Positions 22,497 to 49,663 of a DNA stretch of 64,000 nt are shown here, piece after piece. This DNA is from an uncultured Acidobacteriota bacterium. Its GTDB lineage: Bacteria; Acidobacteriota; Terriglobia; Bryobacterales; UBA6623. The notes beneath the pieces were generated by a model. That model had not been told where the DNA came from and did no database searches. It saw only the letters and a list, made by a program, of their open reading frames with translations. Position 1 is the stretch's first letter; every line of letters begins with the position of its first letter. The position numbers and the translations under genes were made by a program. The stretch spans positions 91,429 to 155,428 of the forward strand of contig CAWFOP010000021.1 of NCBI GenBank assembly GCA_963817465.1. The letters run 5' to 3'.

Positions 22497-23813
22497 TTGC
22501 CAGCTAAACTGACGAAGGTGCGCCGGTTTTCAGCGTTTCGCGAGCTGAAGCTTCGCTGCTCGATCATTTTGCTTGTTTGCGCGCTGCCGCTCGCCGCGCA
22601 GGCGCCCCTGGACGGCGTGTGGGCCAACGGCGAGTTGACTCTGCGGCTCGCGGGCGACGGTGCGCAATACTCCGGCACGATCGAGTTCCAGCAGCAGACG
22701 TTCCCGACCAAGGCCGTCTTTGACGGCCTGTCTCTCGACGGTTCGTTCGTGAGCCAGGGCGACGAGTTCTTCTATCAAGGGCGCCTCGAAGACGGCGTCA
22801 TGGTATTCGAGACCGGCGGAACCGCATATCGCCTGGCGCGAGAGTCGGATAAACCGAAGTCCGCCAATCCGCTGGCGAAGAAAGACCCGGCGCCCAATGC
22901 GCCGGAGCCGGCGGCCGATACGCCCCTGCAAACCGGCGCCGGGCCGTACAAGGTGGACTTGCCCGAAGGCTGGACGGCGCAGCCGGACCCCGAGGCCGGC
23001 GTAGCCCTGATTCCGCCCGACGCGGCGCCGGACAACCAGGAGGTCTACGCCATCACGCACCTGCCTGGCATGACGGGGCCGGAAGATCCTCGCGCCGCGG
23101 CGATGTTGCAGAACATGCTGGGGGCGGCGGCCATGGCGGCGACCTACCGCATCGAGGAGCTGAAGGCGGCCGGCCGCACCGTGATTCTGCACGCCTTCGA
23201 TTTGCCCGCCGCCGATCGCCGTCTGTATGCGTATCTGAGCTCATCGAACGGACAGACGCTGGCGGTGATGGCGAGCGGGGTGAACAAGCTCGTCAAGAAA
23301 AGGGAGGAAGAGATTCTACAGATCGCCGGGACCGCGGAGTTCGTCGGACAGGCGGCGCCGCCGGCCGCGGCGCGGCAGCCGGTCGCGCAACCCGGAAACA
23401 TTCAGATCCACCCCGACGCGCCGCCCATCGTGCCGGGTGAGTTGGCCGACGGCAAGCCGCAGTCGTTGCAGTGGCTCGCCCGCCTGAACGGTAAGCTGCT
23501 GACCAAGATGGAGAGCTACTCGAGCGGCGCCTCAGGCGGCTATTCATCCAGGGATCAAACGGTGCTGTTCCCCAACGGCCGGTTTCAAAACTACACGTCG
23601 TCCAACGTATCGGCCGACGTGCCTGGCGCCAACGCGAACAGCGGAGGACAAGCGACGCTGACCGGCACGTGGCGCATCGTCACGGCCAACGGACTCACCT
23701 TCCTGGCCGTCGTTCCGGACGGCGCGCGCCAGGAGTCTTACTTGCAGCTCAGTGTGCGGAACAATCAAACGTTCATCGACGGCAAGCGCGTGCTGGTGAC
23801 CGTGCCGCAATAG
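22497..23813 (+). CDS. Hypothetical secreted protein
   Basis: Hydrophobic signal CSIILLVCALPLAAQAP. No recognisable domain. Start uncertain (TTG 22497 or GTG 22518). Confidence 0.45.
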   Translation: MPAKLTKVRRFSAFRELKLRCSIILLVCALPLAAQAPLDGVWANGELTLRLAGDGAQYSGTIEFQQQTFPTKAVFDGLSLDGSFVSQGDEFFYQGRLEDGVMVFETGGTAYRLARESDKPKSANPLAKKDPAPNAPEPAADTPLQTGAGPYKVDLPEGWTAQPDPEAGVALIPPDAAPDNQEVYAITHLPGMTGPEDPRAAAMLQNMLGAAAMAATYRIEELKAAGRTVILHAFDLPAADRRLYAYLSSSNGQTLAVMASGVNKLVKKREEEILQIAGTAEFVGQAAPPAAARQPVAQPGNIQIHPDAPPIVPGELADGKPQSLQWLARLNGKLLTKMESYSSGASGGYSSRDQTVLFPNGRFQNYTSSNVSADVPGANANSGGQATLTGTWRIVTANGLTFLAVVPDGARQESYLQLSVRNNQTFIDGKRVLVTVPQ

Positions 23814-23819
23814 CGGCGC

Positions 23820-24347
23820 TCAGCTCGGCAACACTTCAAACTCGAAGGTCATCACCTTGCCGCGGATGACGAAGCACAAGTAGTGCTCCCAAAACTTGCG
23901 AAAGCCCCGCGAATGATTCACGAGAAACTCGAAGCCGAGCAGCCGCCACAGCCGCAATAGCTTCACGTAGAGAGAGCGCTCGCGCAGACGCCTCCGGCTG
24001 TAGTAGCTGAAGCCGCCGTCTTGGGTGAAGTAGCGGAACGAGTAGGTGTTCAAATGCCAGCGGTGCGTGGGGTCGCAGAACGAGCTGAAGTCGGTGTAAT
24101 GCGGCGTCTCGATGCGGATGAGGGCGCCCGGGCGGCAGACGCGGTGAGCTTCTTCGACGGTCGTGATGACGTTGTCGACGTGCTCGATCACGTGGATCAG
24201 AGAAACTTCATCGAACACCCGGTCGCGGAACGGCAGCGCGCCTTTGTTGATGTCGGCCAGCACGTCGGCGGCGGAGTCGGCGTTGAAGTCGACGCCGATC
24301 GCGCCGGGGCGCTTGTTGATGCCGCATCCGAGATCGAGGATTCGCAA
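23820..24347 (-). CDS. Class I SAM-dependent methyltransferase
   Basis: MRILDLGCGINKRPG (motif I) and FDEVSLIHVIEHV. Confidence 0.75.
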   Translation of the reverse strand: MRILDLGCGINKRPGAIGVDFNADSAADVLADINKGALPFRDRVFDEVSLIHVIEHVDNVITTVEEAHRVCRPGALIRIETPHYTDFSSFCDPTHRWHLNTYSFRYFTQDGGFSYYSRRRLRERSLYVKLLRLWRLLGFEFLVNHSRGFRKFWEHYLCFVIRGKVMTFEFEVLPS

Positions 24348-24570
24348 ACCAGAAAGCGTAGCACCTGAAGCCGCCGGCGCTCCGTGTCAGGCGCCAGGAG
24401 TCGGATCAGACCCAAGCGCCGGGAACAGCTTGCCGCACGCAAGCCCTTGATACGCCGGGGCTTGGTGCGGCGGAACCTGTCGGCATCGCTGCCATGAATC
24501 GCCGATTCGGCCGCACGATCGCCAACAACCCGCCAAAAACCCGCCAAAAAGCTGACGTGAAATAGCCGGG

Positions 24571-24628
24571 AAATGGTGAAAAGGGGTGAAAAGGGTGAAA
24601 AGGGGACAATGAAAAGGTGGTGAAAAGG
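24571..24628. repeat. Short tandem purine-rich repeats (GGTGAAAAGG-like, about 5 units) abutting repeat A
   Basis: aatggtgaaaaggggtgaaaagggtgaaaaggggacaatgaaaaggtggtgaaaagggg. The 12-mer AAAAGGGGACAA occurs twice (24598-24609 and 24623-24634). Confidence 0.7.
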
Positions 24629-24821
24629 GGACAACGCCCATTTTGGAGTTCGACTAGCTGGCCCAACGCGCCGGAAGTCTTGTCGCGTACCAGGTCGAGG
24701 TACGTTCGGCTCGGATCGTTCGACGAAGCGGCGGGGCGCTCCTGAGGCGTGTTCCGTCTATGAAGCCTCATGGAATCAGTTGGTTAGCCGAGTTCCTCGC
24801 CCGGAAATAGGCGTTGTCCCC
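24627..24821. repeat. Family-2 element, copy A (~195 bp, 17-bp perfect terminal inverted repeat)
   Basis: GAAAAGGGGACAACGCC (24622-24638) is the exact reverse complement of GGCGTTGTCCCCTTTTC (24810-24826). The core is near-identical to copy B. Confidence 0.8.
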
Positions 24822-24978
24822 TTTTCCCCCTCTCTCCCCCTCGCAAGTGAGCGCCAGCCTAAAATCGTTGCGTCGCCGAAGTGGGATCGGCTAATCTGCC
24901 AAGACGGAAATCCCGATTACGGTTGCGTTTCGCCTTGCGTCGTAATGGCCAAACTATTCGCTGTTGTGGAGAGAAGGG

Positions 24979-25836
24979 ATGGAGGAACGAAACACGCCTC
25001 GAGAGATGATTTCAGAAATCGCGAAACATGTGAGGACGACTCATCTCGCGATGTTGCTTGTATGCGCAGCCACGTATCTCACGCTCGCCACTCGATCGTC
25101 GTCAGACTTAACGATTGAAATCGAGACCGCATACCAGATTTCACAGGAATGGCGAGAGTTGATTGACCAATGGCGTCGCCATTCCCAAAAGTGGCTTCTT
25201 GATCACGACGAAAAGTATCCAGAGAATCTGCCCAGCGGCTCATTGTTCATCTCTCCTGACGACGCGGCGGACATAAATCGAGGCTCGTGGCTGCAGTTGC
25301 TGTATCCGGTCGTCACGACATGTGGACCTGCAAAGTACTTCGGGCAGGCAAGACTCCGGTTTCCGGACACCGAAAAACAACCTACCACCCTAGATGATAT
25401 GGCGCGGGCATGGGACAGCGTCAGCTCATGTTCATCACTAAGGATCACGGCGAAGATTCAGGACCTTAATATAGAAGATGTCGAAGGGCGAAGAGTCAGC
25501 GTCAGTTTGAGAACTTCTCCGGGAAAGGAACACGCACGCAATTTAGATTGGATGGAAACGGAAAAATGCTCAGACGAGCTACGCCAGTCCGCTTCTTACC
25601 GCGATTTCGCTAGTGGCCTCAACCGGCGTCCAGTCTGCGCCTTGGTTAACGGCTATATGATTTCCCTGACCGTTGACTCAGTGTCCCTAATAGCACCCGA
25701 TGATTTCGTGCACTGGTTGGCCGATCGGAAGAATCTAATGCTCCCCGCCACCGGAGATAAGACTTTCGATAACGTGTTTCCAAGACTGTCAGCATCGACC
25801 GTGCACAAACGAACTTCGCCTTGTCAGAATTGGTGA
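24979..25836 (+). CDS. Hypothetical membrane-anchored protein (low-GC orphan)
   Basis: N-terminal TM helix HLAMLLVCAATYLTLA. No recognisable motif and visibly lower GC than the surrounding genome. It is the only sizeable ORF inside the islet. Confidence 0.4.
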   Translation: MEERNTPREMISEIAKHVRTTHLAMLLVCAATYLTLATRSSSDLTIEIETAYQISQEWRELIDQWRRHSQKWLLDHDEKYPENLPSGSLFISPDDAADINRGSWLQLLYPVVTTCGPAKYFGQARLRFPDTEKQPTTLDDMARAWDSVSSCSSLRITAKIQDLNIEDVEGRRVSVSLRTSPGKEHARNLDWMETEKCSDELRQSASYRDFASGLNRRPVCALVNGYMISLTVDSVSLIAPDDFVHWLADRKNLMLPATGDKTFDNVFPRLSASTVHKRTSPCQNW

Positions 25837-26416
25837 ACCCGAAAATCGCGATCAGTTAAGTTCTTCCGACACACAATTTCTATAGCAAAGATGTGTTAGG
25901 GCTCGCGATAAACAAGACTACTCTGAATTTTGCCTTTACAGTTATCGTTTTGATCCAATAAGATTTACCTTTTGGTTCATCTGAGGGAAACTTGCGAGAT
26001 TTAGGTCTCAGATTCCGCAACAAGTAGATATTGCTTGGATGGGGCTATACCGTGACAAATGGGCTAGACGTTTAGCGGCACTCGGCTTATGGGTGCCAAC
26101 TCTGAGGAGCACGCCTGATTGATGGAGTCTTCTTACTTAGGAGTTCAGCCCCTGGCACCTCTTATTGGGCTTCTACGTGTTCTTTTCACTGGATGTTGAA
26201 AACGTGGCAGACGCTCAAGGCCGTCAATGGCGTGCAGCACTGACGAATGCACGATGGTCAGATGACGGCACCAAGAGCATGCGTTAACCGCAGAGGACGA
26301 GGCCGACTGACGATTAGACGTCACCAGCGATAACCAATCTTCAATTCTTCAAACCGATCAGACAACTGCTGCCCCGTCTATTCGGAATTCTGTAGAAAGG
26401 GTGAAACCCTTTCCTT

Positions 26417-26672
26417 GGTGGACAACGCCCATTTGCGTGGAGTTCGACTGGCTGCCGCCCAACGCAATGCCGGTGCAAGTACTTGTAACGTTGGGTACCA
26501 GGACTTTTTCGAGATAACGTTCGGACTGGCGAACAATGAATCTCGTTTCTGCAAGCCGTGAAGGGTCGGGGCGCCTGCCCTGAGGTCGTCTGGGTGGTAG
26601 GCCGCTTTGTGACGGCTCAAATTGGGTATTCAGTTGCAGTGTAGCCGATCTCACGACGCGCAAACCGGAAAG
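26417..26672. repeat. Family-2 element, diverged copy C (same orientation as A and B)
   Basis: Shares ordered blocks with A: gacaacgcccattt, ggagttcgact, cccaacgc, gtaccagg, acgttcgg, cggggcgc, cctgagg, tcagttg, tagccga, ccggaaa. Variable-length segments lie between the blocks. Confidence 0.6.
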
Positions 26673-26825
26673 GAAATGAGGGAAAGGTGACAAGGAAGGG
26701 AATTCAATTGTCTTGTTGGAAGTAGGCGCGCAGGCATCCGGAGCACATGCCGCCGCTGCGGTCCTCGTCGCGGCACAATTCCTGGCATTGATCGCAGGTG
26801 ACATATTCGCGGGGGAAAGGGGGAA

Positions 26826-27018
26826 GGACAACGCCCATTTTGGAGTTCGACTAGCTGGCCCAACGCGCCGGAAGTCTTGTCTCGTACCAGGTCGAGGTAC
26901 GTTCGGCTCGGATCGTTCGACGAAGCGGCGGGGCGCTCCTGAGGCGTGTTCCGTCTATGAAGCCTCACGGAATCAGTTGGTTAGCCAATCTCATCGCCCG
27001 GAAATAGGCGTTGTCCCC
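26826..27018. repeat. Family-2 element, copy B (direct repeat of copy A)
   Basis: By eye only 2 substitutions versus A from ggacaacgccc to cagttggttagcc, then a diverged ~12-nt patch, then the shared aaataggcgttgtcccc. The subterminal 15-mer TGTCCCCTTTTTCCC is duplicated (27012-27026 and 27042-27056). Confidence 0.8.
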
Positions 27019-27544
27019 TTTTTCCCTTACCGAATTGAGTCTGTCCCCTTTTTCCCAGATTCATCACCGTCGTAGTGCGGCGGAGGTCAATCGCACCTTC
27101 AAGCGGGCCTTCGTCGAAGCCGACAATCTGGAGCCGACGCAGGAACCCAGCCAATCCCCGCTCTCGCGCTTCCCGTCGAAGGGGTCTCGACAAAACGGGT
27201 CGTACATCGAGCGGCAAAGGTCGCATTGCACGCCGTCGTAATCGGACCCGGTCATGTGGCTGCCATTGGTCGCGTCCTAGCGCCCGGCCAACCAGCCTCG
27301 CGGGAAGCGACAGCGGAGACAAATCTCGGTCGAGTTGGCGGAGTTCAACGCACCTCCGTCCCAATACTGTCGTACTGAGGGAATTCGCACGAGCATCTCC
27401 ATCAGCGAGGCTGTCCACCTGCTGTGAACCCACAATCCCAACTGGAAGCAGGGCGGCGACCGGTCATCTCCGAACTCAGCTAAGATAGCGACCGTGAACC
27501 AGACTTTTCGTGTCTTGGTTGAAGAGACAAGAAGGAGTTAAGCG

Positions 27545-28987
27545 ATGTCAATACACAGTAGGGCGCTTGGGCGACGATCATTTCTGAAACGGGGAGCCGC
27601 GGCTGCGGGCCTTGGCCTGTTTGCTGACCTTGAGGCCTATCCCCAAAACGTCAACCGGAATTCGAAGCCGTCGGATTTGAGAATCACCGACATGCGCATC
27701 GCCGTTTGCAGAACGCCGCCAGGTCAGGCGGGCGGGGGCGCGGCGGGGCGGGCGGAGGCTCGGCAACGCCGCCCCCTGTGTTTCCCCACACGGGAGGCGC
27801 CTCAGGAGGCACGATCCTTGTCCGAATAGATACCAATCAGGGAATTTCGGGCTACGGCCAGACGATTAATGACGGCCCCCGGCCTAGCTACGTGCTTACG
27901 CATAAGTCCCGGGTGGTCGGCGAGAATCCTTGCAACGTCGACAAGATCTTCCGCAAGATGAAAATGCATGGCGGGTATAACCGTCAGGGGAGCGGCGTCA
28001 ACGCGATTGAGAACGCGTTGTGGGATCTGGCCGGCAAAGCTTATGACGTGCCGATCTATCAAATGCTTGGCGGGAAATTCCGCGAAAGGATCCGCATGTA
28101 CACCGAGGGTGCGGTGCGCTCGAATGACCCGAAAGAAATCGGCGCCGCATATAAGGCGCGAGTCGAAGCCGGGTTTACGATGGTCAAGTATGATCTGAAC
28201 GTAGCTGAGAATTCTCGGAGACACGCCGGGCACGATATATGCCCCGGCAGGATATCAGGGGGAACCGGGGGAGGACCCTGAGAACTACTATCAGGGAATC
28301 GAGATCAGCAATAAAGGGTGCGAACTCGTAACGGACCATGTCGCTGCGATTAAGGAGGCCATGGGCGACGCCGCCGACGTTCCCATGGGGCACGACCATT
28401 TCGGGCACCTTACCGTGGACAGTATCATCAAGCTCGCTCGCGCGTTGGAGAGGGTCACTCCTTCGTATTTGGAAGACTGTGTCCCGTGGTTCCGCGTGAA
28501 GGAGTGGAAGAACATCACCGAGTCGATCCAGATACCCACCCTGACCGGCGAAGACGCCTACCTGGTGGAATCGCTCGAGCCGCTTTGCGAGGAGCGCGCG
28601 GTCGATTATATCCACCCGGATCACAATGTTATCGGCGGCTGTCTCGAATTGAAGAAGGTGGGCGACATGGCGGCCAAATACGCGGTAGGGATGCTGGTCC
28701 ACAGCAACGCTACTCCAATCGGTTACGCTGCCGGCGTACACGCGATAGCCGCCACCCAAAATTTCCTAGCCATGGAATGGCACCAGCCGCAGCCGGCCTG
28801 GCACAAAGACATATGCGACAAAGGGGACCTCGTGGTAAACGGTTACATTCCCGTTCCGACGGGGCCCGGCTTGGGCATCAATGTCAATGAAGAGGCGATT
28901 CGCGCGGTTTGCAGGGAGGGTGAGTTCTTCACCGATCCTACGGAGTATTGGGATACGCAAAAAGGCGGGGAGAAGGGATATACGTAA
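27545..28987 (+). pseudogene. Enolase-superfamily (mandelate racemase / D-galactonate dehydratase-like) gene with Tat signal, split over three frames
   Basis: Frame 2: MSIHSRALGRRSFLKRGAAAAGLG...LRITDMRIAV. Frame 1: GGTILVRIDTNQGISGYG...NAIENALWDLAGKAYDVPIYQMLGG...MVKYDLNVAE. Frame 2 again: ILGDTPGTIYAP...MGHDHFGHL...LTGED...PTGPGLGINV. The shifts lie within the G-rich tract ~27715-27745 and at ~28205-28212. Confidence 0.75.
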
Positions 28988-29278
28988 GCAGAACCCGTTT
29001 ACACCGTTCAAGGGACGGCGTTAAATGGGACGGAGCCCAAAGAGGAGCGCACTTCGCGCCCCGGTCCGTCCCTCCGTCACTTCCTGGGCGATCTGCCGTC
29101 GCGCGCCGCAACTGCTACGGTCGTACCGCGAGGAAAGAAAGCCCCTGCGGTGTGAGCATCTGCGCCTGCAATCGGTTCAGGTGACGGAGAAGCGGACGCG
29201 ATCGAGGGTCATATAACCGCTGACGGATTGCGGTCGAGCCGCAGCCAGGGCCATCCTCATCCTGGAGGCCTCTCCGCC

Positions 29279-40857: not shown

Positions 40858-43135
40858 ATGCTTCACTCGTTCTTAGTGAGACGTGTCTCGATCGTTTGCG
40901 CGGCGATGACGGCGCTGCTGTGGGGCGGCCTCGGTTTGGCTCAGGAGCCGCCGGCCGAAACGCCCACCGTGGAGCTCGCCTCGTTCGCGCCGGGCGGCAA
41001 TTCGCTGTTCGTCGACTACAGGACGGGAAGCCCGGGATGGCCGCGGGCCGCGGTGGGCGCGGACGGATCGTTGTATGTCGCGAGCACGGGCGACAGCTAC
41101 GTTCCGGTCCCTCACGGCGGCGGATACATCAGCTCCATCGCGTTGCTCAGCCGGCTGCGGGAAGGCGGCGAGGAACTCGACAACTGGGTGATGCTCGACG
41201 ATGCCAAGCCGACGGCTGTCGCGACGGGCCCGGACGGAGCGGTCTATTTCGCCGGGGAGCTGAGGCAAAGCGACGCGCTGGAGGCGACGGAAGGGGCGCT
41301 CGATGAGCCCGGCGCGAAGGGCTTTGTGATGAAGCTGTCGGCTGACGGGGAAATCTTGTTTGCGGCGAAACTGCACGGCCGGCCGCAGACCGTCGCGGCC
41401 GATGCGCAGGGCCGGATCTATCTAGCCGGGGCCGCCGCGTCGGACTTCGAGGCGACCGCGGGCGCCTACCAAACGGCGACCGGAGCCGCCGTCTGTGTTC
41501 CATACCCGGATGCGGAACCGGAGGCGTGCGACAGCGGCTTCGCCGCGCGGCTGAGCGCTGACGGCTCGCGCCTCGAGTGGGCGACGTTTCTTGGGGGCGG
41601 GGGAGACGATTGGATCGCGCGGATCGCGGTCGATGCGACGGCGATCCATTTGGCGGGGCAGACGGTTTCGGCGGACTTCCCGGTGACTGCCGGGGCGTTT
41701 CAGTCGGCGTATCGGGGAGGCAAGCAAGTTGGGTTCGCCGAGTTGGGCGATGCGTTCGTCGCGAAGATGTCGCTCGACGGACGCGAGTTGCTCTACTCGA
41801 CTTACCTGGGCGGCTCGTCCGGCGAGCAGGTGGGCGGACTGGCGGTCGACGGTTCCGGGGCCGCCTTGGTGACTGGGACGACCTACTCCGCCGACTTTCC
41901 GGCGACCGGGGGCGCTCCGCAGACCGCCTATGGAGACGGCGACGTGGGCGAGGGCGGCGCGGGCGAGGGCGGCGACGCTTTTTACTTGCTGCTCGATGCG
42001 GGAAACGAGGCTCTCGTGTCGAGCTACCGGGGCGGCGCGGCGGCGGAGTCCGGACGCGGGGCGGTTGCGCTGGACGATGCCGAAGGCGGCGGCTTCGCGG
42101 TCGATGTCGGCCGCGGGCCTGCGTTCAATCCCTGCTCGCGCAACGAATCTATTCTCCGGCTCGACAGGCGGGGGCGGCCGATCGAGCAATTCGAGATGGC
42201 GGCGGGCCTTGTCAGCGGGGACCTGATCGCGGCGAGCGGGAGCTTGGTGTTGGCGGGTCAATCCGTGACCGGATATCGACCCAATGATTTCGCGGTGACG
42301 CCGGGCGCGCCGCAACGGCAAGGCGATGTCTGGATCGCGCGGTTCCGGCTCGAGGCGGACGAGCGGCCTCTGGCGGACTGCGTCGTGAGCGCCGCCTCGT
42401 TTCTCGCGGGGCGGCAGTACGGCTACTTGTCGATCGCGGCCGTGTCGCCGGGGGAGATCGTGTCGATTTTCGGGCGCAATCTTGGGCCGGCGGAAGGGGC
42501 GGTCTTCCAGGTCGGCGATGACGGGCTGGTTCCCACGGAATTGGCGGGCACGACGCTCAGCATCGGAGGGACGGCCGCGCCGCTGCTGTATGTGGGCGAC
42601 GGGCAAGTGAACGCGGTCGTTCCCTTTGGGGTCGGGGCCGGGGAGCGAAAGCGTGCGGCTTACGACGCCGGACGGCGCGACGCGGGAGTACGGCGTCGAG
42701 GTGTTCGATAGCGTGCCGGGCGTCTTCTCGCTCGACGCGAGCGGTTCGGGGCAGGCCGCGGCGCTCAATCAGGACGGCACGTTGAACTCGCCGAGCAACC
42801 CGGCGCACAAGGGCGAAGTGATGACGTTCTACGTCACGGGATTGGGAGCCTTCGATGCGCCGGTCGAGGACGGGTCGGTGATCGGCGCGGCGCCGCCGTT
42901 CCCGCGGACGGTCGAGCCTTTTCAGATTTACGTGCAAGCGCCGTTCGGGTCGGGAGCGGCGGGGATGCCGGTCGAATACGCGGGCGCCGCGCCGGGGTTC
43001 GTCGCGGGGCTGGTGCAGATCAACGCTCGAGTTCCGGAGGCGGCGTCGACCGGAGACGCGGTGCTGGTGCGTATCGTGATGGACGCGCCGAACTTCGAAC
43101 GTTCGCAGGACGGGTTGACGATTGCGGTGGAGTGA
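40858..43135 (+). pseudogene. Secreted beta-propeller-repeat protein with TIGR03437-type (Solibacter) C-terminal domain, one frameshift
   Basis: ORF 40858-42711 ends ...LLYVGDGQVNAVVPFGVGAG and then runs out of frame. ORF 42626-43135 continues SESVRLTTPDGATREYGVEVFDSVPGVFS...YAGAAPGFVAGLVQINARVP...TIAVE. The shift lies in the G-runs at 42628-42643 (e.g. GGGG at 42640-42643). Confidence 0.7.
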
Positions 43136-43344: not shown

Positions 43345-44415
43345 TCAAGCGCGCCGCCTGGGAAGGTACACTCCTTCAAAAAAGGCACGTCGACCTTGAT
43401 GGCGACCCGCGTCCATTGGTATTAAGTTCGCCTGGATCAGAACCGAGTGGACAGTCTCATCAAGCTCCCGACGTCCCTCCGGCTGGATTTGCCGCTCCAC
43501 CCTCACCGATCGAAGGCCTTTCGTATAGACGACCCGTCCAACCATGCCGGCAATCATGATCAACAGGACCACGACGTGCCACCAACCGAACGGGAGCACA
43601 CCGATTAGCTCGAGCGCGATCACGGCTGCGGTCAGCAGCACGGCGGTCAGCTGCGGTTCTGAGAACGCATATACGAAATACCGTCCTGGATCTCCCCTCA
43701 GGAATTCAAACGAGAAACGCCCGGCGCCATAGCCCACAATGTATAAGGCAACGTTCTCACCCGGCGCATGATGTAGGATGTGCGTGGCGATTGCGAGCCC
43801 GGCTAGCATAAATAGCCACGTAGCCTCCACCAGCTGAACCGGAAAGAGCCGTACTCCTCTGACAAAATAGAAGTATCCGGTTGCGGCGTGCCTGCTTCCA
43901 TAGCGGACGCCCCATCCGCTGGGTCGACCGTGACAGCATCCCGCCATAAAACACCCCACTCTGCCAAAAGCCTGATACACGAGCAGGGCAACGACTAGAA
44001 TGTCCAAATATGCGAAGACAGGTTCTCTCAGCAGTAGAAGGAGCGCTACGGTGAAGATCAGCGCCACAATCTGAAAATGATAGACGCCCTTCTTCGCCCA
44101 GTTCAGCAGGGAGTAAGAGCGCCGTAGCAGTTTAGTGCTCTTGAACAGGGCGAACGACAACATAGCCACCAATCCCACGATTGTCGCTAGCACCGAGATG
44201 GAAACCGGGGCCGTAGAGGCGAGTGCGAAAAGAACGCCGGTACCCACGACCACCCCGGAGTAGATCCATACGAAGTAGCTATTCCAGGTTCGTCCAAAAC
44301 AGGTAATCTCGCGCTTCGCGGCCGCGTCCATGAGAAGATTAAAGAGCCGTTGAATTTGAGCTTTCATGAACGTTCTTTTGCTCCTTATCGCTATTCCTAA
44401 TCCTTCACCGATCAT
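43345..44415 (-). CDS. Lgt-family (prolipoprotein diacylglyceryl transferase-like) polytopic membrane protein
   Basis: Seven or so hydrophobic helices plus FGRVGCFMAGCCHGRP, the G-R-x-G-C-x-x-x-G-C-C-x-G variant of the Lgt signature as I recall it. It is the last gene of the RiPP island. An alternative start is ATG 44367. Confidence 0.55.
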   Translation of the reverse strand: MIGEGLGIAIRSKRTFMKAQIQRLFNLLMDAAAKREITCFGRTWNSYFVWIYSGVVVGTGVLFALASTAPVSISVLATIVGLVAMLSFALFKSTKLLRRSYSLLNWAKKGVYHFQIVALIFTVALLLLLREPVFAYLDILVVALLVYQAFGRVGCFMAGCCHGRPSGWGVRYGSRHAATGYFYFVRGVRLFPVQLVEATWLFMLAGLAIATHILHHAPGENVALYIVGYGAGRFSFEFLRGDPGRYFVYAFSEPQLTAVLLTAAVIALELIGVLPFGWWHVVVLLIMIAGMVGRVVYTKGLRSVRVERQIQPEGRRELDETVHSVLIQANLIPMDAGRHQGRRAFFEGVYLPRRRA

Positions 44416-44422
44416 GATTTAC

Positions 44423-46759
44423 TTATATCTCAAGCGCATCACGCTCCAGTAAGAGAACGGAAGGCGCTTTCCGATCGTACAGCCGGAGATAGAAGTAGCC
44501 GACGCCGCTAAGCCCAAGCATGAGCCCCGGCGCTCTCGACCCTAGAGAGCCGAAGGGCCATTGATGTCGTCGTGCTCCATGCTTGCGAATCCCCTCAGCA
44601 GCCACTTTCATGGCCACTTCGCGGCCATCGGGGAAGGCGTCCCCGAGGATCTCAGAACCAATGGTGAGAATGTCGGCATTGCCGGCAAGACCGTGGCAGA
44701 GCGAGAAATTGAATACTCCAGAGTCGAGGGTGCGCAAAGTCCATCGCAGCGTCGTCGTCAAGGCCGTGAGGGCTTCGGATCTACAGCGCTCATCGTCCAA
44801 GACACGGAAGGCATGGAGGCGCGAAAGGGCGATGCCGGCGGCTCCATGGCACCAGAAGGCCGGGAAGTCGACAGGACAGTCGATCCTTGTCGCACGCGCA
44901 GGCACGCCGCGGAAGTCCGGCCAATTACCCAACTCTTCGTTGAACCAGAGCCGCTCATACTTGAAGGCGTCTTGGGCGAGGTCGCGGTACTCGGTATTTT
45001 GAGTGGCCCGATACAATTCGATCAGGCCGTGGGCGACGCCCGCCGTACCATGTGAGAGTCCGAGCAACCCGCGTTGTTTTGGAAAGTCCGGAGACTTCCA
45101 GGAACAACATTCGCCTTTTCTTTGTGCGGCTCGAACGAGTTGGCTCCCTAGTTGAACTGCGAAGTCCGAACGGTCAAAGCCGCCCAGGATATGGCCCAAT
45201 ATCAGGAGTGCAACGATAGCGCCGCCGCTCCCGGATACCAGGTCGGCGCTAGAAACAACCGGATTCCGCCGCAGGGCATCCTCCACTAGGTGCACGGCGC
45301 GGCGGACAAGGTCCTCCTCGCCGAGCCGCCTGCCGACGTAGGCGGCCGCGACCGCTACGCCCAGGACGCCTTCATATAAGCCCAGCCCTTTGCACAACGA
45401 CGGCGAACAGGAGGCGGATATCGCCTGCCGAATTGCACCGAGAGCAGTCCGCCGCACGGCAATCTCGCCAGTGGCCGCATGCAGTTCCGCCAGAAACAAG
45501 GCAATGCCACTCGTCCCGGCATAAAAATCGGGTCCAAGCGTCTGATACGCCAACCCAGAGTCATACTGCCGCGGAAGGCTATTTTGCGGAAACCCGACAC
45601 CCATCCAGTTGCATCGCTCGTCGTGCCAAATCGCGGCCTCACAAAGAAGGCTCCCGATGTCAAATGCTGTCTCCAATAGCGTCTCTCGGCGGATCGCGGG
45701 CTGTTTGGGAATTCGACGGCCTCTCGCGGTTCCGGGGAGCCGGGAACGGGGTGCAAGGTGGAAAATGTCTTCAGAACCAGGATTGAGAAACGGCTGATCG
45801 AGCGAGACTCCCTGTTCGTCAAAATAGTCCTGCACGGCCGCTACACGCCCGCTGACCGCTGTTTCGCGCAACTCCGCAACGCGCACTAGACCTTCGGCCA
45901 GTATTTGACAGCGGTGCATGCCGAAACTAACCCCCCGGTTTGGCTGCTCCGCTATCCCGAGGCCCAGGCGGAGCCGCTTGGTAAATGCCGGCGTCTCGTT
46001 CTTTAGGTACGGCGCCACTTTGGGCTGAATCAACTCCAGCAGCGGCCGGATACGCGAGTAATCCTCTTTGGCCGTGTAGAGGACCGCAGAATCAGCCCGT
46101 ATGAATAAGTTGGGGTCGTCCACGACCTTCAGCCTGTACGGAATGCGGTCCCGGTTGAATGTTGAAGTTAGAGCCCGCATCAGGACGGTCGCCCCTTCCG
46201 CATGAAGATTCCAATACAGCCTGACGACGGGCGTGTTGCCGCCCGTTGGCAAAACCTCATCTCCCATCGCCTGGTAGAATCCCGGCGACATGAAGGGCAG
46301 CTCTTTCGGCATCGATGTCGAGACTTTATCGCCCTTGATCGGTTCAACTCGAAGAAAGGAGGTCTCACCGTCATTGACATAGAGGCGAAGTCCATTCTGT
46401 TGTATGGCGATCAAATCGCCTTTTTGGTCAATCACCTCCCAACCATGCTGCACAAATCCTTTGCCGTGGTTGGCTGCGGAAAGTGCATTGACAAACGCGC
46501 TCTTTGATGAAACCGGCGAGGGTTGCGCCTCGAAGGATTGCACCGGCACAGCAGCGCCTTTGCAGTAGAAGTGGCTATAGAGCCTCTGTTGCAGTCCGTG
46601 AATGAGGCAGGTCCGCGCGGTTTCCGGAGGTAGCGACCGTCTCAGGCGCAGCGGAAGGGTAGTCTCATGTTCCCAAAACCAAAACCAGGAGAAGGGAGGT
46701 TGAACCTGCGTGGCCTGCACGGCTGACCGCAATCGCTCAACGTGTTCACACGTGCTCAT
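44423..46759 (-). CDS. Fusion protein: N-terminal HopA1-like (putative phospho-Ser/Thr lyase) domain + C-terminal LanC-like lanthionine cyclase
   Basis: C-terminal LanC motifs: AGTSGIALFLAELH, LSHGTAGVAHGLIEL, FWCHGAAGIALSRL and SLCHGLAGNADIL (Zn ligands Cys, Cys-His). The N-terminal ~340 aa (RLYWNLHAEG...RLKVVDDPNLFIRADSAVLY...PAFTKRLRLGLGIAEQPNRGVSFGMHRCQILAEGL) matches my memory of the HopA1 effector-family pattern. No search was run. Confidence 0.7.
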   Translation of the reverse strand: MSTCEHVERLRSAVQATQVQPPFSWFWFWEHETTLPLRLRRSLPPETARTCLIHGLQQRLYSHFYCKGAAVPVQSFEAQPSPVSSKSAFVNALSAANHGKGFVQHGWEVIDQKGDLIAIQQNGLRLYVNDGETSFLRVEPIKGDKVSTSMPKELPFMSPGFYQAMGDEVLPTGGNTPVVRLYWNLHAEGATVLMRALTSTFNRDRIPYRLKVVDDPNLFIRADSAVLYTAKEDYSRIRPLLELIQPKVAPYLKNETPAFTKRLRLGLGIAEQPNRGVSFGMHRCQILAEGLVRVAELRETAVSGRVAAVQDYFDEQGVSLDQPFLNPGSEDIFHLAPRSRLPGTARGRRIPKQPAIRRETLLETAFDIGSLLCEAAIWHDERCNWMGVGFPQNSLPRQYDSGLAYQTLGPDFYAGTSGIALFLAELHAATGEIAVRRTALGAIRQAISASCSPSLCKGLGLYEGVLGVAVAAAYVGRRLGEEDLVRRAVHLVEDALRRNPVVSSADLVSGSGGAIVALLILGHILGGFDRSDFAVQLGSQLVRAAQRKGECCSWKSPDFPKQRGLLGLSHGTAGVAHGLIELYRATQNTEYRDLAQDAFKYERLWFNEELGNWPDFRGVPARATRIDCPVDFPAFWCHGAAGIALSRLHAFRVLDDERCRSEALTALTTTLRWTLRTLDSGVFNFSLCHGLAGNADILTIGSEILGDAFPDGREVAMKVAAEGIRKHGARRHQWPFGSLGSRAPGLMLGLSGVGYFYLRLYDRKAPSVLLLERDALEI

Positions 46760-47894
46760 GACGCCGTCCCGGCAACGGAAGCCCCAATAGCTGCACAGCG
46801 GCTTCCATCGGCCGGGCTAAGATGTTGGAACATAGTTGCAGTAGAGAAACGGCACGAGCGCCAACGCTAGCTTCAACCTGCGATTGCTCGTATGCGGTTT
46901 GGACGAGCCTGACGCCAGCGAAGCTGACGGCGCGCAAGAGCCAAGCCTCTTCTTCGGCAGCGGAAATTCTCATTCGACGGCGGTAGACGCTCCAGAAGGC
47001 TCGTAAAGCAGGCTGCATCCGATGCAGTGGAAACAGGGCAAGACTCAGGAATTGGTCGGGCGGGTGATCGTTGGAGATCGGGATCGATGACAGCCAAAGC
47101 GTCAAGTATTCACTGAAGACCGTGCCGACGTCCCAGCAGGGGTCGCCCAATCGCGCCAACTCCCAGTCGACGATCTTCAACTCAGCCTCCGGGCGAGGCG
47201 CCTCGGCGCATATCAGGCAGTTGTCCCACTTGAGGTCGCCATGGATGAACGTCTCATTCGTCCACTGACCTCTGCAAGCTTCGAATGACTTGCAGAGCTG
47301 ATCCGATTCCTGAATGATCTTAATCAGATCCAGACTCGCCAGGCTGGAATGTAGATAGACCCATTGATCAGGAACGGGAAGAAAAAACACCCATGGCGGC
47401 TTTTCGGGCGCGCGAAGGCTCTTGGTTACGTGGGTTCTTTCCAGCGGCGACGTGTTGTGACACTCGGCAAGCGCCGCAGCCAGCAACCGGGCGATTGTGG
47501 ACGGGAAACGGCCTCGACGCAAGCAATGATCCCGAAGAGTCGTCGATTCCAAGAAAGCTTCGATGATCAGGACTTGCTCGGCGCTATCGAACGCGTAGTA
47601 GCGAGGAAGCGCATGAAAGCCGGCTCGACCGGAATAGACAGTCGCCAGCAATTCATAGACGGCAGCCTCGTACGCAACCGTGGCGAACTTCCGGCGCCGT
47701 GGCGGACTCCCCCTGGTTTCCTGCTTGAGGAAATAATGCGGCCCTTTGCCGTTGATCACTTTAAGGTTGCCGTTGCGCCGAGACGCATTCACAACAGAGA
47801 CGCCGTCGCCAACGACCGCCGCACTCGACACCCACCCCTCGTTCAGCAGGTAGCGTACGACATCTCCGTATCCGGTCAGCACTGACCTAGGCAC
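46746..47894 (-). CDS. Stand-alone phosphotransferase (APH / protein-kinase-like fold)
   Basis: Brenner motif FIHGDLKWDNCLI and IVDWELARLGDPCWDVG. Its stop overlaps the next gene's ATG by 14 nt. Confidence 0.75.
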   Translation of the reverse strand: MPRSVLTGYGDVVRYLLNEGWVSSAAVVGDGVSVVNASRRNGNLKVINGKGPHYFLKQETRGSPPRRRKFATVAYEAAVYELLATVYSGRAGFHALPRYYAFDSAEQVLIIEAFLESTTLRDHCLRRGRFPSTIARLLAAALAECHNTSPLERTHVTKSLRAPEKPPWVFFLPVPDQWVYLHSSLASLDLIKIIQESDQLCKSFEACRGQWTNETFIHGDLKWDNCLICAEAPRPEAELKIVDWELARLGDPCWDVGTVFSEYLTLWLSSIPISNDHPPDQFLSLALFPLHRMQPALRAFWSVYRRRMRISAAEEEAWLLRAVSFAGVRLVQTAYEQSQVEASVGARAVSLLQLCSNILARPMEAAVQLLGLPLPGRRHEHV

Positions 47895-47947
47895 CCATCG
47901 AGGAAGTTAGGGCTTAGTTTGCGCGAGCGTGCAGAGCACCGCTGAAA

Positions 47948-48448
47948 TCAACACCCGCAGCCAGTGGGAGGGTTCGGCCCGCAGAGCGGAGGCGATGAAG
48001 TTGTCGGTATGGGACAATTCGGGTCTCCGGGGAGGTCTGTCGGACAGCCGCCCCAAGACGTGCCTCCGCCAGTCCCTACCAAGGCCGAGATCAGACCGCT
48101 GACGCCAGTCGCTCTTCGCCCATGCGCGGCTTGGATGCTTCCCTTCAGGAAGTCGCCCGACACGACACCTGTGGAGATCAACTGCACCCTCAAGTCTCCA
48201 GGTATCCATACGGCAATTTGCCCGGCGGGAAAACGCTTGACACCGAGGATCCGGTCGACCGGCACCTGAAAGTACTGATTCAGATGGAGCGACGTGTACA
48301 CGCGCAGCGTTTTAGCGTCCGGCCCCCTTCCAATGAGTGTGCCAACCAGTACGTTCACATCCGGATTGTTCGGATCAGGAATTAACCGGTTGATCAGATC
48401 GTCCTCGGTCAACTCCTTCCATCCTTCAGTTGGTCCTTTTTCCGCCAC
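47948..48448 (-). CDS. Putative RiPP (lanthipeptide-type) precursor: ~129-aa Cys-free leader + 37-aa Cys/Ser/Thr/Pro-rich core
   Basis: GTG start at 48448 is 5 nt after GGAGG. The C-terminus TSWGGCPTDLPGDPNCPIPTTSSPPLCGPNPPTGCGC has 5 Cys, 8 Ser/Thr and 10 Pro. There is no Cys anywhere upstream of it. It is the first gene of the island operon. Confidence 0.7.
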   Translation of the reverse strand: MAEKGPTEGWKELTEDDLINRLIPDPNNPDVNVLVGTLIGRGPDAKTLRVYTSLHLNQYFQVPVDRILGVKRFPAGQIAVWIPGDLRVQLISTGVVSGDFLKGSIQAAHGRRATGVSGLISALVGTGGGTSWGGCPTDLPGDPNCPIPTTSSPPLCGPNPPTGCGC

Positions 48449-48747
48449 TTCGACCTCCGATCCGACTGTGAATTTAAGAGACTAAGGTACTCTAATCCGC
48501 GTCCGGCGGGTTGTCAACAGATTTTATGGCGCCCTCTAAAAAGGTCGGTGAGACGCAAGGAAGCTGGAGGAATTTGGCAGGGAATTTGGTTTTCTCAGTT
48601 GGGACTCACCGAGGGGCAAGGGTCGCCCGCCTGGCGGCGGCGGCGGGAGGGGACGTCCACTGCGCGGGTTCCCGCGTTGTATCGGGTTCGGGCGGCATGG
48701 GACAGGGCCCGTGGCGGGCGCTTTCTTGAGTGCTGCAGATTTGGGAC

Positions 48748-48778
48748 GAACAGATCGGCGACGGAACAGATCGGCGAC
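48748..48778. repeat. Tandem 15-bp direct repeat (GAACAGATCGGCGAC x2)
   Basis: Copies at 48748-48762 and 48764-48778 are identical and 1 nt apart. They lie ~300 bp upstream of the precursor gene and just downstream of the transglutaminase-like gene. Confidence 0.6.
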
Positions 48779-48785
48779 AGGCGCG

Positions 48786-49663
48786 CTAGGCGGCGGTGAT
48801 GCGTTCGACTCTTACTTTGGCTTCGACGTCGTGCTCGCCGCCGCCCAGGATGACGCCTGTTACCGGGCTGACGTCGCTGTAGTCGCGGCCCCAGGCGACC
48901 GAGAAGTGGCCGTCGCTGGGCATGACGTTGTTGGTGGGGTCGAAGTCGACCCAGCCGAACTGCGAGCACCAGGCCGAGACCCAGGCGTGTGAAGCTTGGT
49001 CGCCGACGACCCTGGGGCCGGGCTTGAGGTAGCCGCTGACGTAGCGCGCGGGCAGGCCGATCGAGCGCATGCAGCCGATCATCAATTGGGCGAAGTCTTG
49101 GCAGACGCCGCGCTTGTTCTTGACGACCTCTTCGAGCGGCGTGGCCACGGTGGTCGCCTCGGGGTCGTACTCGAATTCGCTGATGGATGCGCTCGCCTGA
49201 GCTCGCGGGCGGCCTCGAGCAGCGGGCGGCCGGGCGTGAAGCTTTTTCGGCGTAGGCGGCCAACTGGGGCCGCAGGCGGACGTTCGGGCGACTCGAAGCA
49301 GAATTCAAAGGCGTCGAGCGCGTCGAGCGTTTCATGGGCGCGGACGACGGCTTTGACGTCTTCCCACGGCGGACTCATGGCCGCGGCCGGGGGCTCGCCG
49401 CCGGTCAGCTCGATAAGGGAGACGCCGCTGACGCTCATCTTCGAATGCGGCTCGCCGATCGTGAAGTAGTTGACGTAGTTGCCGAAGTAGTCTTGGCGCA
49501 GCGCGGTGTCGTAGGGCGCGGGTTCGACGATCAGGCGGTGGCGCACGACCTTCTGGCGATCGCCGGCGCGCGGGCGCAGGCGCACCTCGTTGTAGCAGAG
49601 GGAAACGCGCTCGGTGTAGCCGTAGATCGTCGTGTGGGTGACGCGAAACAACATGGCGATCAA
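48786..49663 (-). pseudogene. Transglutaminase-family protein gene (Bact_transglu_N + Cys-His-Asp core) broken by about 4 frameshifts within ~110 bp
   Basis: The N-terminal part MIAMLFRVTHTTIYGYTERV...DALDAFEFCFES is in one frame and the core ATPLEEVVKNKRGVCQDFAQL...SHAWVSAW...DFDPTN is in another. The joining segments SPNVRLRPQLAAYAEK / SFTPGRPLLEAAREL / SERIHQ / EFEYDPEATTV alternate between frames. Candidate indels are at GGG 49286-49288, TTTTT 49244-49248, ~49196-49201 and ~49179-49181. Confidence 0.75.

Follow-up and report, generated by a model that had tools for sequence, protein, structure and literature searches.

Class V lanthipeptide pathways are split into two subgroups. Class Va uses LanK, LanY, LanD, and LanX and has no LanC, whereas in class Vb a dedicated LanC forms the rings (PMC11186320, PMC12291118, PMC12328550). 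The only characterized class Vb member is mSmoA, the product of SmoK, SmoY, and SmoC (Pei et al., J Am Chem Soc 2022, per PMC11186320, PMC12291118, PMC12328550), and SmoC is reported to direct ring formation (PMC11186320, PMC12328550). A survey by Eyles et al. in 2021 mined 1,340 HopA1 proteins, of which 96% lay beside a phosphotransferase and 20% were near or fused to a LanC, and described the fusions as a possible new, uncharacterized lanthionine synthetase (PMC8153245). Here, we analyze a stretch of 64,000 nucleotides (nt) from an uncultured Acidobacteriota bacterium (contig CAWFOP010000021.1, positions 91,429 to 155,428; the whole stretch is referred to below as the window). It carries an island of four minus-strand open reading frames (ORFs), all in the same direction and spanning 43345-48448, for a lanthipeptide-type ribosomally synthesized and posttranslationally modified peptide (RiPP) pathway. 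Judged by its predicted domains and residues, the system is a variant of the class Vb type in which two of the enzymes are fused. The four ORFs are as follows:

47948-48448, minus strand: precursor ORF, 166 aa, GTG start
46746-47894, minus strand: kinase ORF, 382 aa, GTG start
44423-46759, minus strand: lyase-cyclase fusion ORF, 778 aa, ATG start
43345-44415, minus strand: Lgt-like ORF, 356 aa as the longest ORF, ATG start

We assign the system to this type because the same enzyme set occurs in class Vb and because fused and split forms interleave in one family. As in class V generally, a stand-alone PF01636 kinase sits beside the lyase, and the PF17914 lyase has the Arg/Lys/Arg/Tyr set of the CaoY type. 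The separation of class V enzymes onto three polypeptides is not found here, as lyase and cyclase share the 778-aa ORF. As in class Vb, the cyclase is a zinc-type PF05147 LanC with Cys/Cys/His ligands, and neither LanD nor LanX is among the four genes of the island. Likened by description, SmoK, SmoY, and SmoC match the window system in having an APH-type LanK, a HopA1-type LanY, and a dedicated LanC, with no LanD or LanX and with lanthionine rings as the sole core modification. They differ in being three separate enzymes, whereas the window has a LanY-LanC fusion, and the leader domain of ~100 aa and the attached Lgt-like gene are on the window side.

The clusters described by Eyles et al. 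(peptide Families 11/20 and 22; PMC8153245) likewise have a phosphotransferase beside a HopA1 protein near or fused to LanC. That work differs in being bioinformatics only, in covering GenBank as of 2020, and in seeking short peptides near the bait protein; its main text and those of its supplementary files covered here do not mention an Lgt-like partner. The class Va pairs LxmK-LxmY, from the lexapeptide pathway (9DK1-3; PMC12291118), and CaoK-CaoY share catalytic residues with the window enzymes, and 9DK1 is the best solved structure for both kinase and lyase. Their genes, too, are adjacent or overlapping, consistent with a heterodimer. In contrast to the window system, class Va has LanD and LanX and forms aminovinyl-methylcysteine (AviMeCys) without LanC, and its enzymes resemble those of the window only weakly (kinase, 25 bits; lyase, 51 bits). 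LanL, LanKC, and LanM also phosphorylate and then eliminate, classes II and IV also have a zinc LanC-type cyclase, and the window cyclase is most similar to the LanM C terminus. However, these enzymes carry the kinase on the same chain, as a PF00069-type domain (classes III and IV) or a LanM dehydratase domain, and the lyase of classes II to IV is of the OspF type, whereas the window lyase is of the HopA1 type.

The first-pass annotation of this DNA held that the layout fits no class and may be undescribed, on the premise that class V has a cyclase unlike LanC. That premise is outdated, as class Vb uses a dedicated LanC, and the proposal of an undescribed layout is not borne out in view of class Vb and the 2021 report of fusions. 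The split form of the architecture belongs to a named and characterized class; in the literature searched, the fused form does not. The underlying prediction of a lanthipeptide-type RiPP pathway, with a kinase in trans and a lyase fused to a zinc-type LanC, is supported by both domains and residues. Thus, the enzyme logic (kinase, HopA1 lyase, and LanC) is not new, although the fused form is common (>110 protein clusters) yet without a characterized member in the literature searched. We consider that the main value of the locus lies in its Lgt-like partner and in a large unannotated precursor family, not in the fusion.

All of the chemistry that we propose is drawn from homology. The 166-aa precursor would be made in the cytoplasm, where its N-terminal domain of ~100 aa would act as the recognition (leader) element. 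The stand-alone APH-fold kinase would phosphorylate core Ser/Thr residues with ATP and Mg. The LanY domain would then eliminate the phosphate to give dehydroalanine or dehydrobutyrine, with K211 as the base assisted by R180, R221, and Y228. Finally, the LanC domain, with Zn held by C637, C688, and H689 and with H570 as the acid, would add Cys thiolates to form (methyl)lanthionine rings. The catalytic roles of the residues are taken from PMC9486802 and PMC12291118. We give a probability of about 75% to this reading of a compact class V-type cluster with subgroup Vb chemistry, in which lyase and cyclase share one polypeptide and these four steps take place. The least certain step is a fifth, in which the cotranscribed Lgt-like enzyme would act, on the cytoplasmic side of the membrane, upon the peptide once it is modified. 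The likeliest reaction would be to S-alkylate or lipidate a non-ring Cys, with peptide docking or export as the alternative. We propose a tailoring reaction tentatively, at somewhat less than an even chance.

Several points weigh against the four-step reading. The kinase scores far under the LxmK equivalog cut-off (NF038156), and the leader is far longer than in characterized class V precursors, with a predicted fold of moderate confidence (pLDDT, the predicted score in the local distance difference test, 67-83) and no structural match. The surrounding assembly has frameshift-split genes, though the four island genes are intact. In the literature searched, no product is on record, and no experimental work was found, for any fused lyase-cyclase.

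Kinase and lyase-cyclase fusion

The kinase matches APH (PF01636) in Pfam at 8e-11, and its best NCBIfam match is LxmK (NF038156) at 1.5e-27, with 96.6 bits versus a cut-off of 315. LxmK is also its best match in the Protein Data Bank (PDB) (9DK1_A, 25 bits), and the HGDLKWDN and VDWE motifs of the kinase align with D221, Q226, and D241 of LxmK. The fusion protein consists of a complete LanY and a complete LanC, joined by a variable linker:

45740-46759, minus strand: LanY-type phosphoSer/Thr lyase domain, fusion residues 1-340, with the HopA1 core at residues 156-325
44426-45709, minus strand: zinc-type LanC cyclase domain, fusion residues ~351-778; the stop codon follows at 44423-44425

The lyase domain matches HopA1 (PF17914) at 2.7e-42 over fusion residues 156-325. 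Its best PDB match is LxmY (9DK1_B; 7e-13, 51 bits), in which the R, K, R, D, and Y positions are identical. Residues 1-335 of the fusion match the free-standing lyase genes of ~340 aa that occur in split loci. Twenty homologues of the fusion, with 32-51% identity, were aligned, and R180, Y182, K211, R221, D223, and Y228 are invariant among them. The spacing of R180, K211, R221, and Y228 (31/10/7) is close to that of R187, K219, R229, and Y236 in CaoY (32/10/7), which mutagenesis identified as the catalytic set of that enzyme (PMC9486802).

The cyclase domain matches LANC_like (PF05147) at 1.8e-53 over residues 408-768, covering profile positions 3-348 of 350. In the same alignment, H570, W636, C637, C688, and H689 are invariant, and LicM2 (PDB 6ST5) has its SHG, WCHG, and CHG motifs at the aligned positions. 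The zinc ligands, on which the first-pass annotation had staked its LanC call, thus align and are conserved. Its quoted motifs (FWCHGAAG, SLCHGLAG, SHGTAG, HGDLKWDN, and DWE..GDP) are all present in the translations, and its four domain guesses (APH, HopA1, LANC_like, and LGT) were each confirmed by Pfam searches, including the HopA1 assignment for the fusion N terminus.

Assignment to the other classes was rejected. Against the NCBIfam models, membership in classes I, II, III, and IV finds no support, and the class II to IV models cover the cyclase part only, below their cut-offs. For class II, the LanM model TIGR03897 matches at 4.4e-72 but at profile positions 539-931 only (243 bits versus a cut-off of 304), and no LanM dehydratase domain is present. 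For classes III and IV (LanKC and LanL), NF038150 and NF038151 match the cyclase region only and score far below their cut-offs. Class Va was rejected on the LxmK equivalog score of the kinase (96.6 versus 315 bits) and on the absence of LanD and LanX.

The arrangement recurs widely. A metagenome search of 5.8 billion proteins accounts for the >110 clusters with PF17914 and PF05147 on one chain. A scan of species-representative genomes gave 80 loci, which were fetched and classified with hidden Markov models (HMMs) built from the proteins of the window, for a survey total of 85 loci. (The 512 relatives in the genome scan are LanC-domain pattern matches and should not be taken as 512 fused or three-gene systems.) The loci come from Chloroflexota, Acidobacteriota, Actinomycetota, Bacteroidota, Pseudomonadota, Planctomycetota, Verrucomicrobiota, Gemmatimonadota, and Cyanobacteria. 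Many such clusters occur in Acidobacteriota and Chloroflexota, from which few RiPPs have been characterized. The order precursor-kinase-lyase-cyclase was found in 75 of the 85 loci, from at least 10 phyla, with the enzymes fused in 26 and split in 49. The other 10 are partial or class I-like LanC loci. In 76 of the 85, the gene directly upstream of the lyase is the kinase. As the order repeats in 75 independent loci, we consider the arrangement of the island to be more than chance, and a fusion beside a stand-alone kinase, for which the first-pass annotation had suggested a neighborhood survey, proves to be a recurrent layout. Fused and split states interleave in a rough neighbor-joining tree of the cyclase domain. 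In the window, the kinase and fusion genes share 14 nt, an overlap consistent with translational coupling and with a complex of kinase and lyase such as CaoK-CaoY.

All-against-all clustering of ORFs from the surveyed loci found no further conserved gene family, including any protease, transporter, flavoprotein, or second kinase-like family. The conserved core thus comprises the precursor, kinase, lyase, and cyclase, and leader removal and export, if any, would fall to enzymes encoded elsewhere. The fused lyase-cyclase also occurs in cultured Pseudomonas, Plantactinospora, and Catellatospora strains, namely, Pseudomonas spelaei CCM 7893, Plantactinospora veratri NEAU-FHS4, and Catellatospora sp. 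NPDC049111. Separately, a 5.1-kb contig binned as a Nitrososphaeraceae archaeon (L006; L numbers denote individual loci) carries a kinase and a fused lyase-cyclase with 39% identity to that of the window, reflecting either a binning error or transfer into archaea.

Precursor and leader family

The precursor has the organization of a lanthipeptide precursor, with an N-terminal leader and a Cys/Ser/Thr-rich C-terminal core:

48119-48448, minus strand: conserved leader domain, precursor residues 1-110
48047-48118, minus strand: Gly-rich linker, residues 111-134
47951-48046, minus strand: Cys/Ser/Thr/Pro-rich core, residues 135-166, CPTDLPGDPNCPIPTTSSPPLCGPNPPTGCGC

The 32-aa core has 5 Cys and 6 Ser/Thr residues, and 2 further Ser/Thr residues lie just upstream. 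No signal peptide is apparent in the sequence. The ~110-aa leader, the Gly-rich linker, and a conserved 5-Cys core are common to 32 close homologues, whose core consensus is GGGTS(W/F)GG-CPTDLPGDPxCPIPxTxSPPLCGPNPPTGCxC. The AlphaFold2 (AF2) model of the precursor has a mean pLDDT of 54.6, with a beta domain at residues 30-92 (pLDDT, 67-83) and disorder at residues 96-166; a Foldseek search of this model against the PDB returned nothing below E = 0.1. Neither the window precursor nor four diverse relatives had a Pfam or NCBIfam match.

An HMM of the leader only recovered 66 proteins in 61 loci. Cys makes up 0.15% of their leaders versus 9.3% of their tails, an enrichment of ~60-fold, and Ser/Thr makes up 15.8% of the tails, which are also Pro and Gly rich and range from 25 to 774 aa in length. 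A conserved leader with a hypervariable Cys-rich tail is a RiPP signature and speaks in favor of intramolecular thioether formation. Searching 1.84 billion representatives with a profile (E ≤ 1e-3) extended the family to 763 members or clusters, with the domain always N-terminal and proteins of up to 832 aa. The leader domain thus defines several hundred precursor clusters, some with dozens of Cys, and could serve directly for genome mining. We found no description of this 100-aa leader family in the literature searched, and the family, for which neither Pfam nor NCBIfam has a model, appears to be undescribed.

The Cys enrichment also bears on whether the LanC domain forms rings at all. It could instead add an external small thiol, as the eukaryotic LanCL proteins do, or just protect the dehydro residues, and the PDB sequences matched by the cyclase domain do include LANCL1 and LANCL2. 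However, the closest matches are LanM cyclase domains, the ~60-fold excess of Cys in tails over leaders is what intramolecular cyclization predicts, and SmoC, a split homologue, reportedly directs the formation of rings. We consider a ring-free product very improbable and retain intramolecular cyclization as the role of the domain.

Some relatives with this leader are giants (L030 3915-6668; L034 4206-6584; L048 3861-5933; L053 4171-6462; L070 5137-6786; L037 4958-6751; L031 4833-6671). Their tails of 385-774 aa hold 42-82 Cys and 72-117 Ser/Thr residues; the whole L048 protein, for example, has 690 aa. GCPxTSTCPP is repeated 5-10 times in some of them, and 7 loci share the motif P-S-x-[VIL]-D-A-C-P-[TS]. 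All of the giants adjoin kinase, lyase, and cyclase genes of the split form and could be multicore precursors or heavily thioether-cross-linked proteins. A different kind of precursor is found in Pseudomonas spelaei CCM 7893, where a fused lyase-cyclase locus has no member of the 100-aa leader family (L078 6120-6728). A 202-aa ORF directly upstream of the kinase encodes five T(K/Q)TCKPTRNPCCK repeats, so the fused enzyme serves more than one precursor family, in this case in a cultured strain.

An alternative is that the substrate of the enzymes is a protein. In that case the N-terminal domain of ~100 aa would be kept, and the product would be a thioether-cross-linked small protein, very large in relatives and possibly structural or surface associated. 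The leader is a predicted beta domain conserved across phyla, no protease or transporter is conserved with the system, and the tails of relatives reach 774 aa and 82 Cys with repeated motifs, as would be expected of such proteins. However, class III and IV clusters also often lack a dedicated protease. The Gly-rich disordered linker, which ends in GG immediately before the first core Cys, resembles a cleavable junction, and repeated cores such as those of the Pseudomonas locus are typical of multicore precursors that are cut into peptides. A retained N-terminal domain seems to us unlikely, though worth keeping in view, and below we continue to treat the domain as the leader of a lanthipeptide.

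Lgt-like membrane protein

The last gene of the island encodes a polytopic membrane protein with the signature GRVGCFMAGCCHGRP. Its relation to Lgt, the prolipoprotein diacylglyceryl transferase that lipidates lipoproteins, is seen in Pfam, in hhalign, and in fold comparison. LGT (PF01790) matches at 1.7e-19 (70.5 bits versus a cut-off of 24.9), and the only significant PDB match to its AF2 model (pLDDT, 87.5) is E. coli Lgt (5AZB; E = 1.3e-5; template-modeling [TM] scores, 0.43/0.52). Sequence and profile searches of the protein against PDB sequences gave no match. It shares the Pfam family and overall fold of E. coli Lgt. However, E. coli Lgt is a housekeeping enzyme, and the contexts of the Lgt-like relatives are RiPP and injection-system clusters. 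The motif GRxGCxxxGCCHG replaces the Lgt signature GRxGNFxNGExxG, and relative to E. coli Lgt the protein gains a helix at its N terminus, a transmembrane helix at its C terminus, and a predicted cytoplasmic tail. A profile alignment gives the following equivalents of E. coli Lgt residues in the window protein:

H103 of E. coli Lgt, window H113: kept
R143 of E. coli Lgt, window R152: kept
N146 of E. coli Lgt, window C155: replaced by Cys
E151 of E. coli Lgt, window C160: replaced by Cys
G154 of E. coli Lgt, window G163: kept
Y235 of E. coli Lgt, window Y229: kept
R239 of E. coli Lgt, window R233: kept
R246 of E. coli Lgt, window R240: kept

An equivalent of E243 is also present. Among 34 diverse relatives, R152, C155, C160, C161, G163, R233, R240, D242, and R245 are invariant, and H162 is nearly so. 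The three Cys and the His, which stand in place of the Asn, Glu, and Trp of Lgt, could form a metal site.

The gene is tied to one clade of the system. In the initial set of 85 loci, only the window, L001, and L005 carry it, and a metagenome scan with the precursor subfamily of the window added 4 loci that extend past the fusion, all of which have it. In the clade that includes the window, the gene thus comes after the fusion in 7 of 7 loci, versus 0 of ~78 elsewhere, and the seven loci form one clade in the cyclase tree. The first-pass annotation had counted the gene as part of the pathway, and on these numbers it is a specific partner rather than an accidental neighbor. The possibility of a housekeeping lgt nearby by chance was rejected on the divergent signature and the clade-specific linkage. 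We found no description of such a partner in the literature searched; a clade-specific Lgt-like partner with an altered signature appears to be undescribed.

The distribution of charges suggests an unusual topology. In the 34 family members, the mean number of Lys plus Arg residues per sequence is 5.7 in the N-terminal 47 residues, 2.9 in loop 93-113, 4.0 in loop 160-194 (just after the signature), 2.5 in loop 240-255, and 13.4 in the C-terminal tail, versus 0.2-0.7 in the alternate loops. The homologous loops of E. coli Lgt show the opposite charge pattern. Under the positive-inside rule, the signature loop of the Lgt-like protein would lie on the cytoplasmic side, which we take to be opposite to the orientation of E. 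coli Lgt. This suggests that the protein is inserted inverted relative to E. coli Lgt, and an inverted topology would fit a cytoplasmic substrate without a signal peptide.

A specific form of the fifth step is that the protein is a cytoplasm-facing S-alkyl or S-lipid transferase, with a Cys3/His site (C155, C160, C161, and H162; possibly metal binding), that transfers diacylglyceryl or a related moiety onto a free Cys in the completed lanthipeptide. We rate this proposal as unlikely. If true, it would define a new kind of lipidated lanthipeptide, with a lipidation step also hinted at in contractile injection system loci, where relatives lie among eCIS_core proteins. More generally, a divergent Lgt-like enzyme paired strictly with a single clade offers a testable route to new peptide lipidation, and it may hint at the role of the enzyme family in contractile injection systems.

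Several observations count against any tailoring step. The protein scores 36.2 bits against the Lgt equivalog model TIGR00544, below its cut-off of 118.9. The topology is derived from the positive-inside rule alone. The precursor core has no canonical lipobox. Cys occupies the positions of the catalytic Lgt residues N146 and E151. In addition, distant relatives occur in injection-system clusters without lanthipeptide genes. The last three points also speak for a protein that does not tailor the peptide and acts instead in export, self-protection, or synthetase docking, or that is the product of a mobile accessory gene with another substrate. With four of five distant relatives among eCIS_core genes, we see this as a serious alternative, although well short of probable. 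Set against it are the strict linkage to one enzyme and precursor clade (7 of 7 loci, compared with 0 of ~78 others) and a gene placement suited to cotranslation (in the window a gap of 7 nt separates it from the fusion gene, and in L001 the two overlap). Moreover, the equivalents of Lgt R143, R239, Y235, and G154 are kept, and the three Cys and the His are invariant or nearly so; these retained residues argue for catalysis over a passive role. We continue, tentatively, to favor a tailoring enzyme.

The distant relatives, which have 33-38% identity and the same GCxxxGCCHG signature, are encoded inside extracellular contractile injection system clusters (L098 6001-7215; L099 and L100 6001-7137; L102 7001-8296; L103 7001-8215). 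Four of the five examined sit directly among eCIS_core (PF13699) genes, in clusters that hold sheath, tube, Pvc16_N, AAA ATPase, and baseplate genes. This placement inside contractile injection system clusters also appears to be undescribed.

Operon layout and flanking DNA

The first-pass annotation described four tightly packed, codirectional genes in DNA of lower GC content than the flanks, and both descriptions hold. The precursor stop and kinase start are 53 nt apart, the kinase and fusion genes overlap by 14 nt, and a gap of 7 nt separates the fusion from the longest Lgt-like ORF. In the public gene call (P0153), the Lgt-like protein has 328 aa and starts 28 codons later than the longest ORF. 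The GC content of the island is 58.0%, versus 64.1% in the rest of the window, and GC at third codon positions (GC3) is 0.63-0.66 in the four island genes versus 0.89-0.91 in flanking genes. Given the low GC and GC3 and a codon usage foreign to the host, the four-gene operon was probably acquired horizontally by its Acidobacteriota host. The earlier suggestion of an Acidobacteriota host is plausible, as a flanking gene has a TIGR03437 Soli_cterm domain. A search for insertion-site marks found no tRNA and no flanking direct repeats at the island, and PADLOC made no defense-system assignment.

A transferred cluster could also survive as an inactive remnant. The foreign codon usage, the frameshift splits in several neighboring genes, and the lack of export or protease genes in the island would all suit such a history. 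However, the four ORFs are intact and full length relative to homologues, the catalytic residues are intact, and a good ribosome-binding site is present. We regard decay of the island as extremely improbable and treat it as a functional operon. The candidate expression signals upstream of the precursor are as follows:

48454-48458, minus strand: Shine-Dalgarno sequence GGAGG, read from the sequence, 5 nt before the precursor GTG
48489-48517, minus strand: promoter-like site TTGACA-17 nt-TAGAGT, 10/12 matches, ~40 nt upstream of the precursor start

Two promoter-like sites were found in the region versus 1.6 expected by chance, so the match is no better than chance frequency.

The low GC content of the island is not unique in the window. 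A second patch at ~23750-29000 has a GC content of 0.55-0.57, lower still than that of the island, and contains short or fragmented ORFs, including a methyltransferase fragment and a split MR_MLE gene. Three flanking genes are apparently split by frameshifts (window 42626-42711, 49082-49148, and 27706-28987), and the island genes are intact. TIGR03437 Soli_cterm is split across ORFs of 617 aa and 169 aa, the transglutaminase N-terminal and core domains fall on overlapping ORFs, and the MR_MLE N and C domains sit on separate ORFs. Either indels in the assembly or decay of the genes would explain these splits. Between the transglutaminase-like gene and the promoter-like site of the precursor, at window 48748-48778, lies a perfect tandem duplication of the 15-mer GAACAGATCGGCGAC, with 1 base between the copies.

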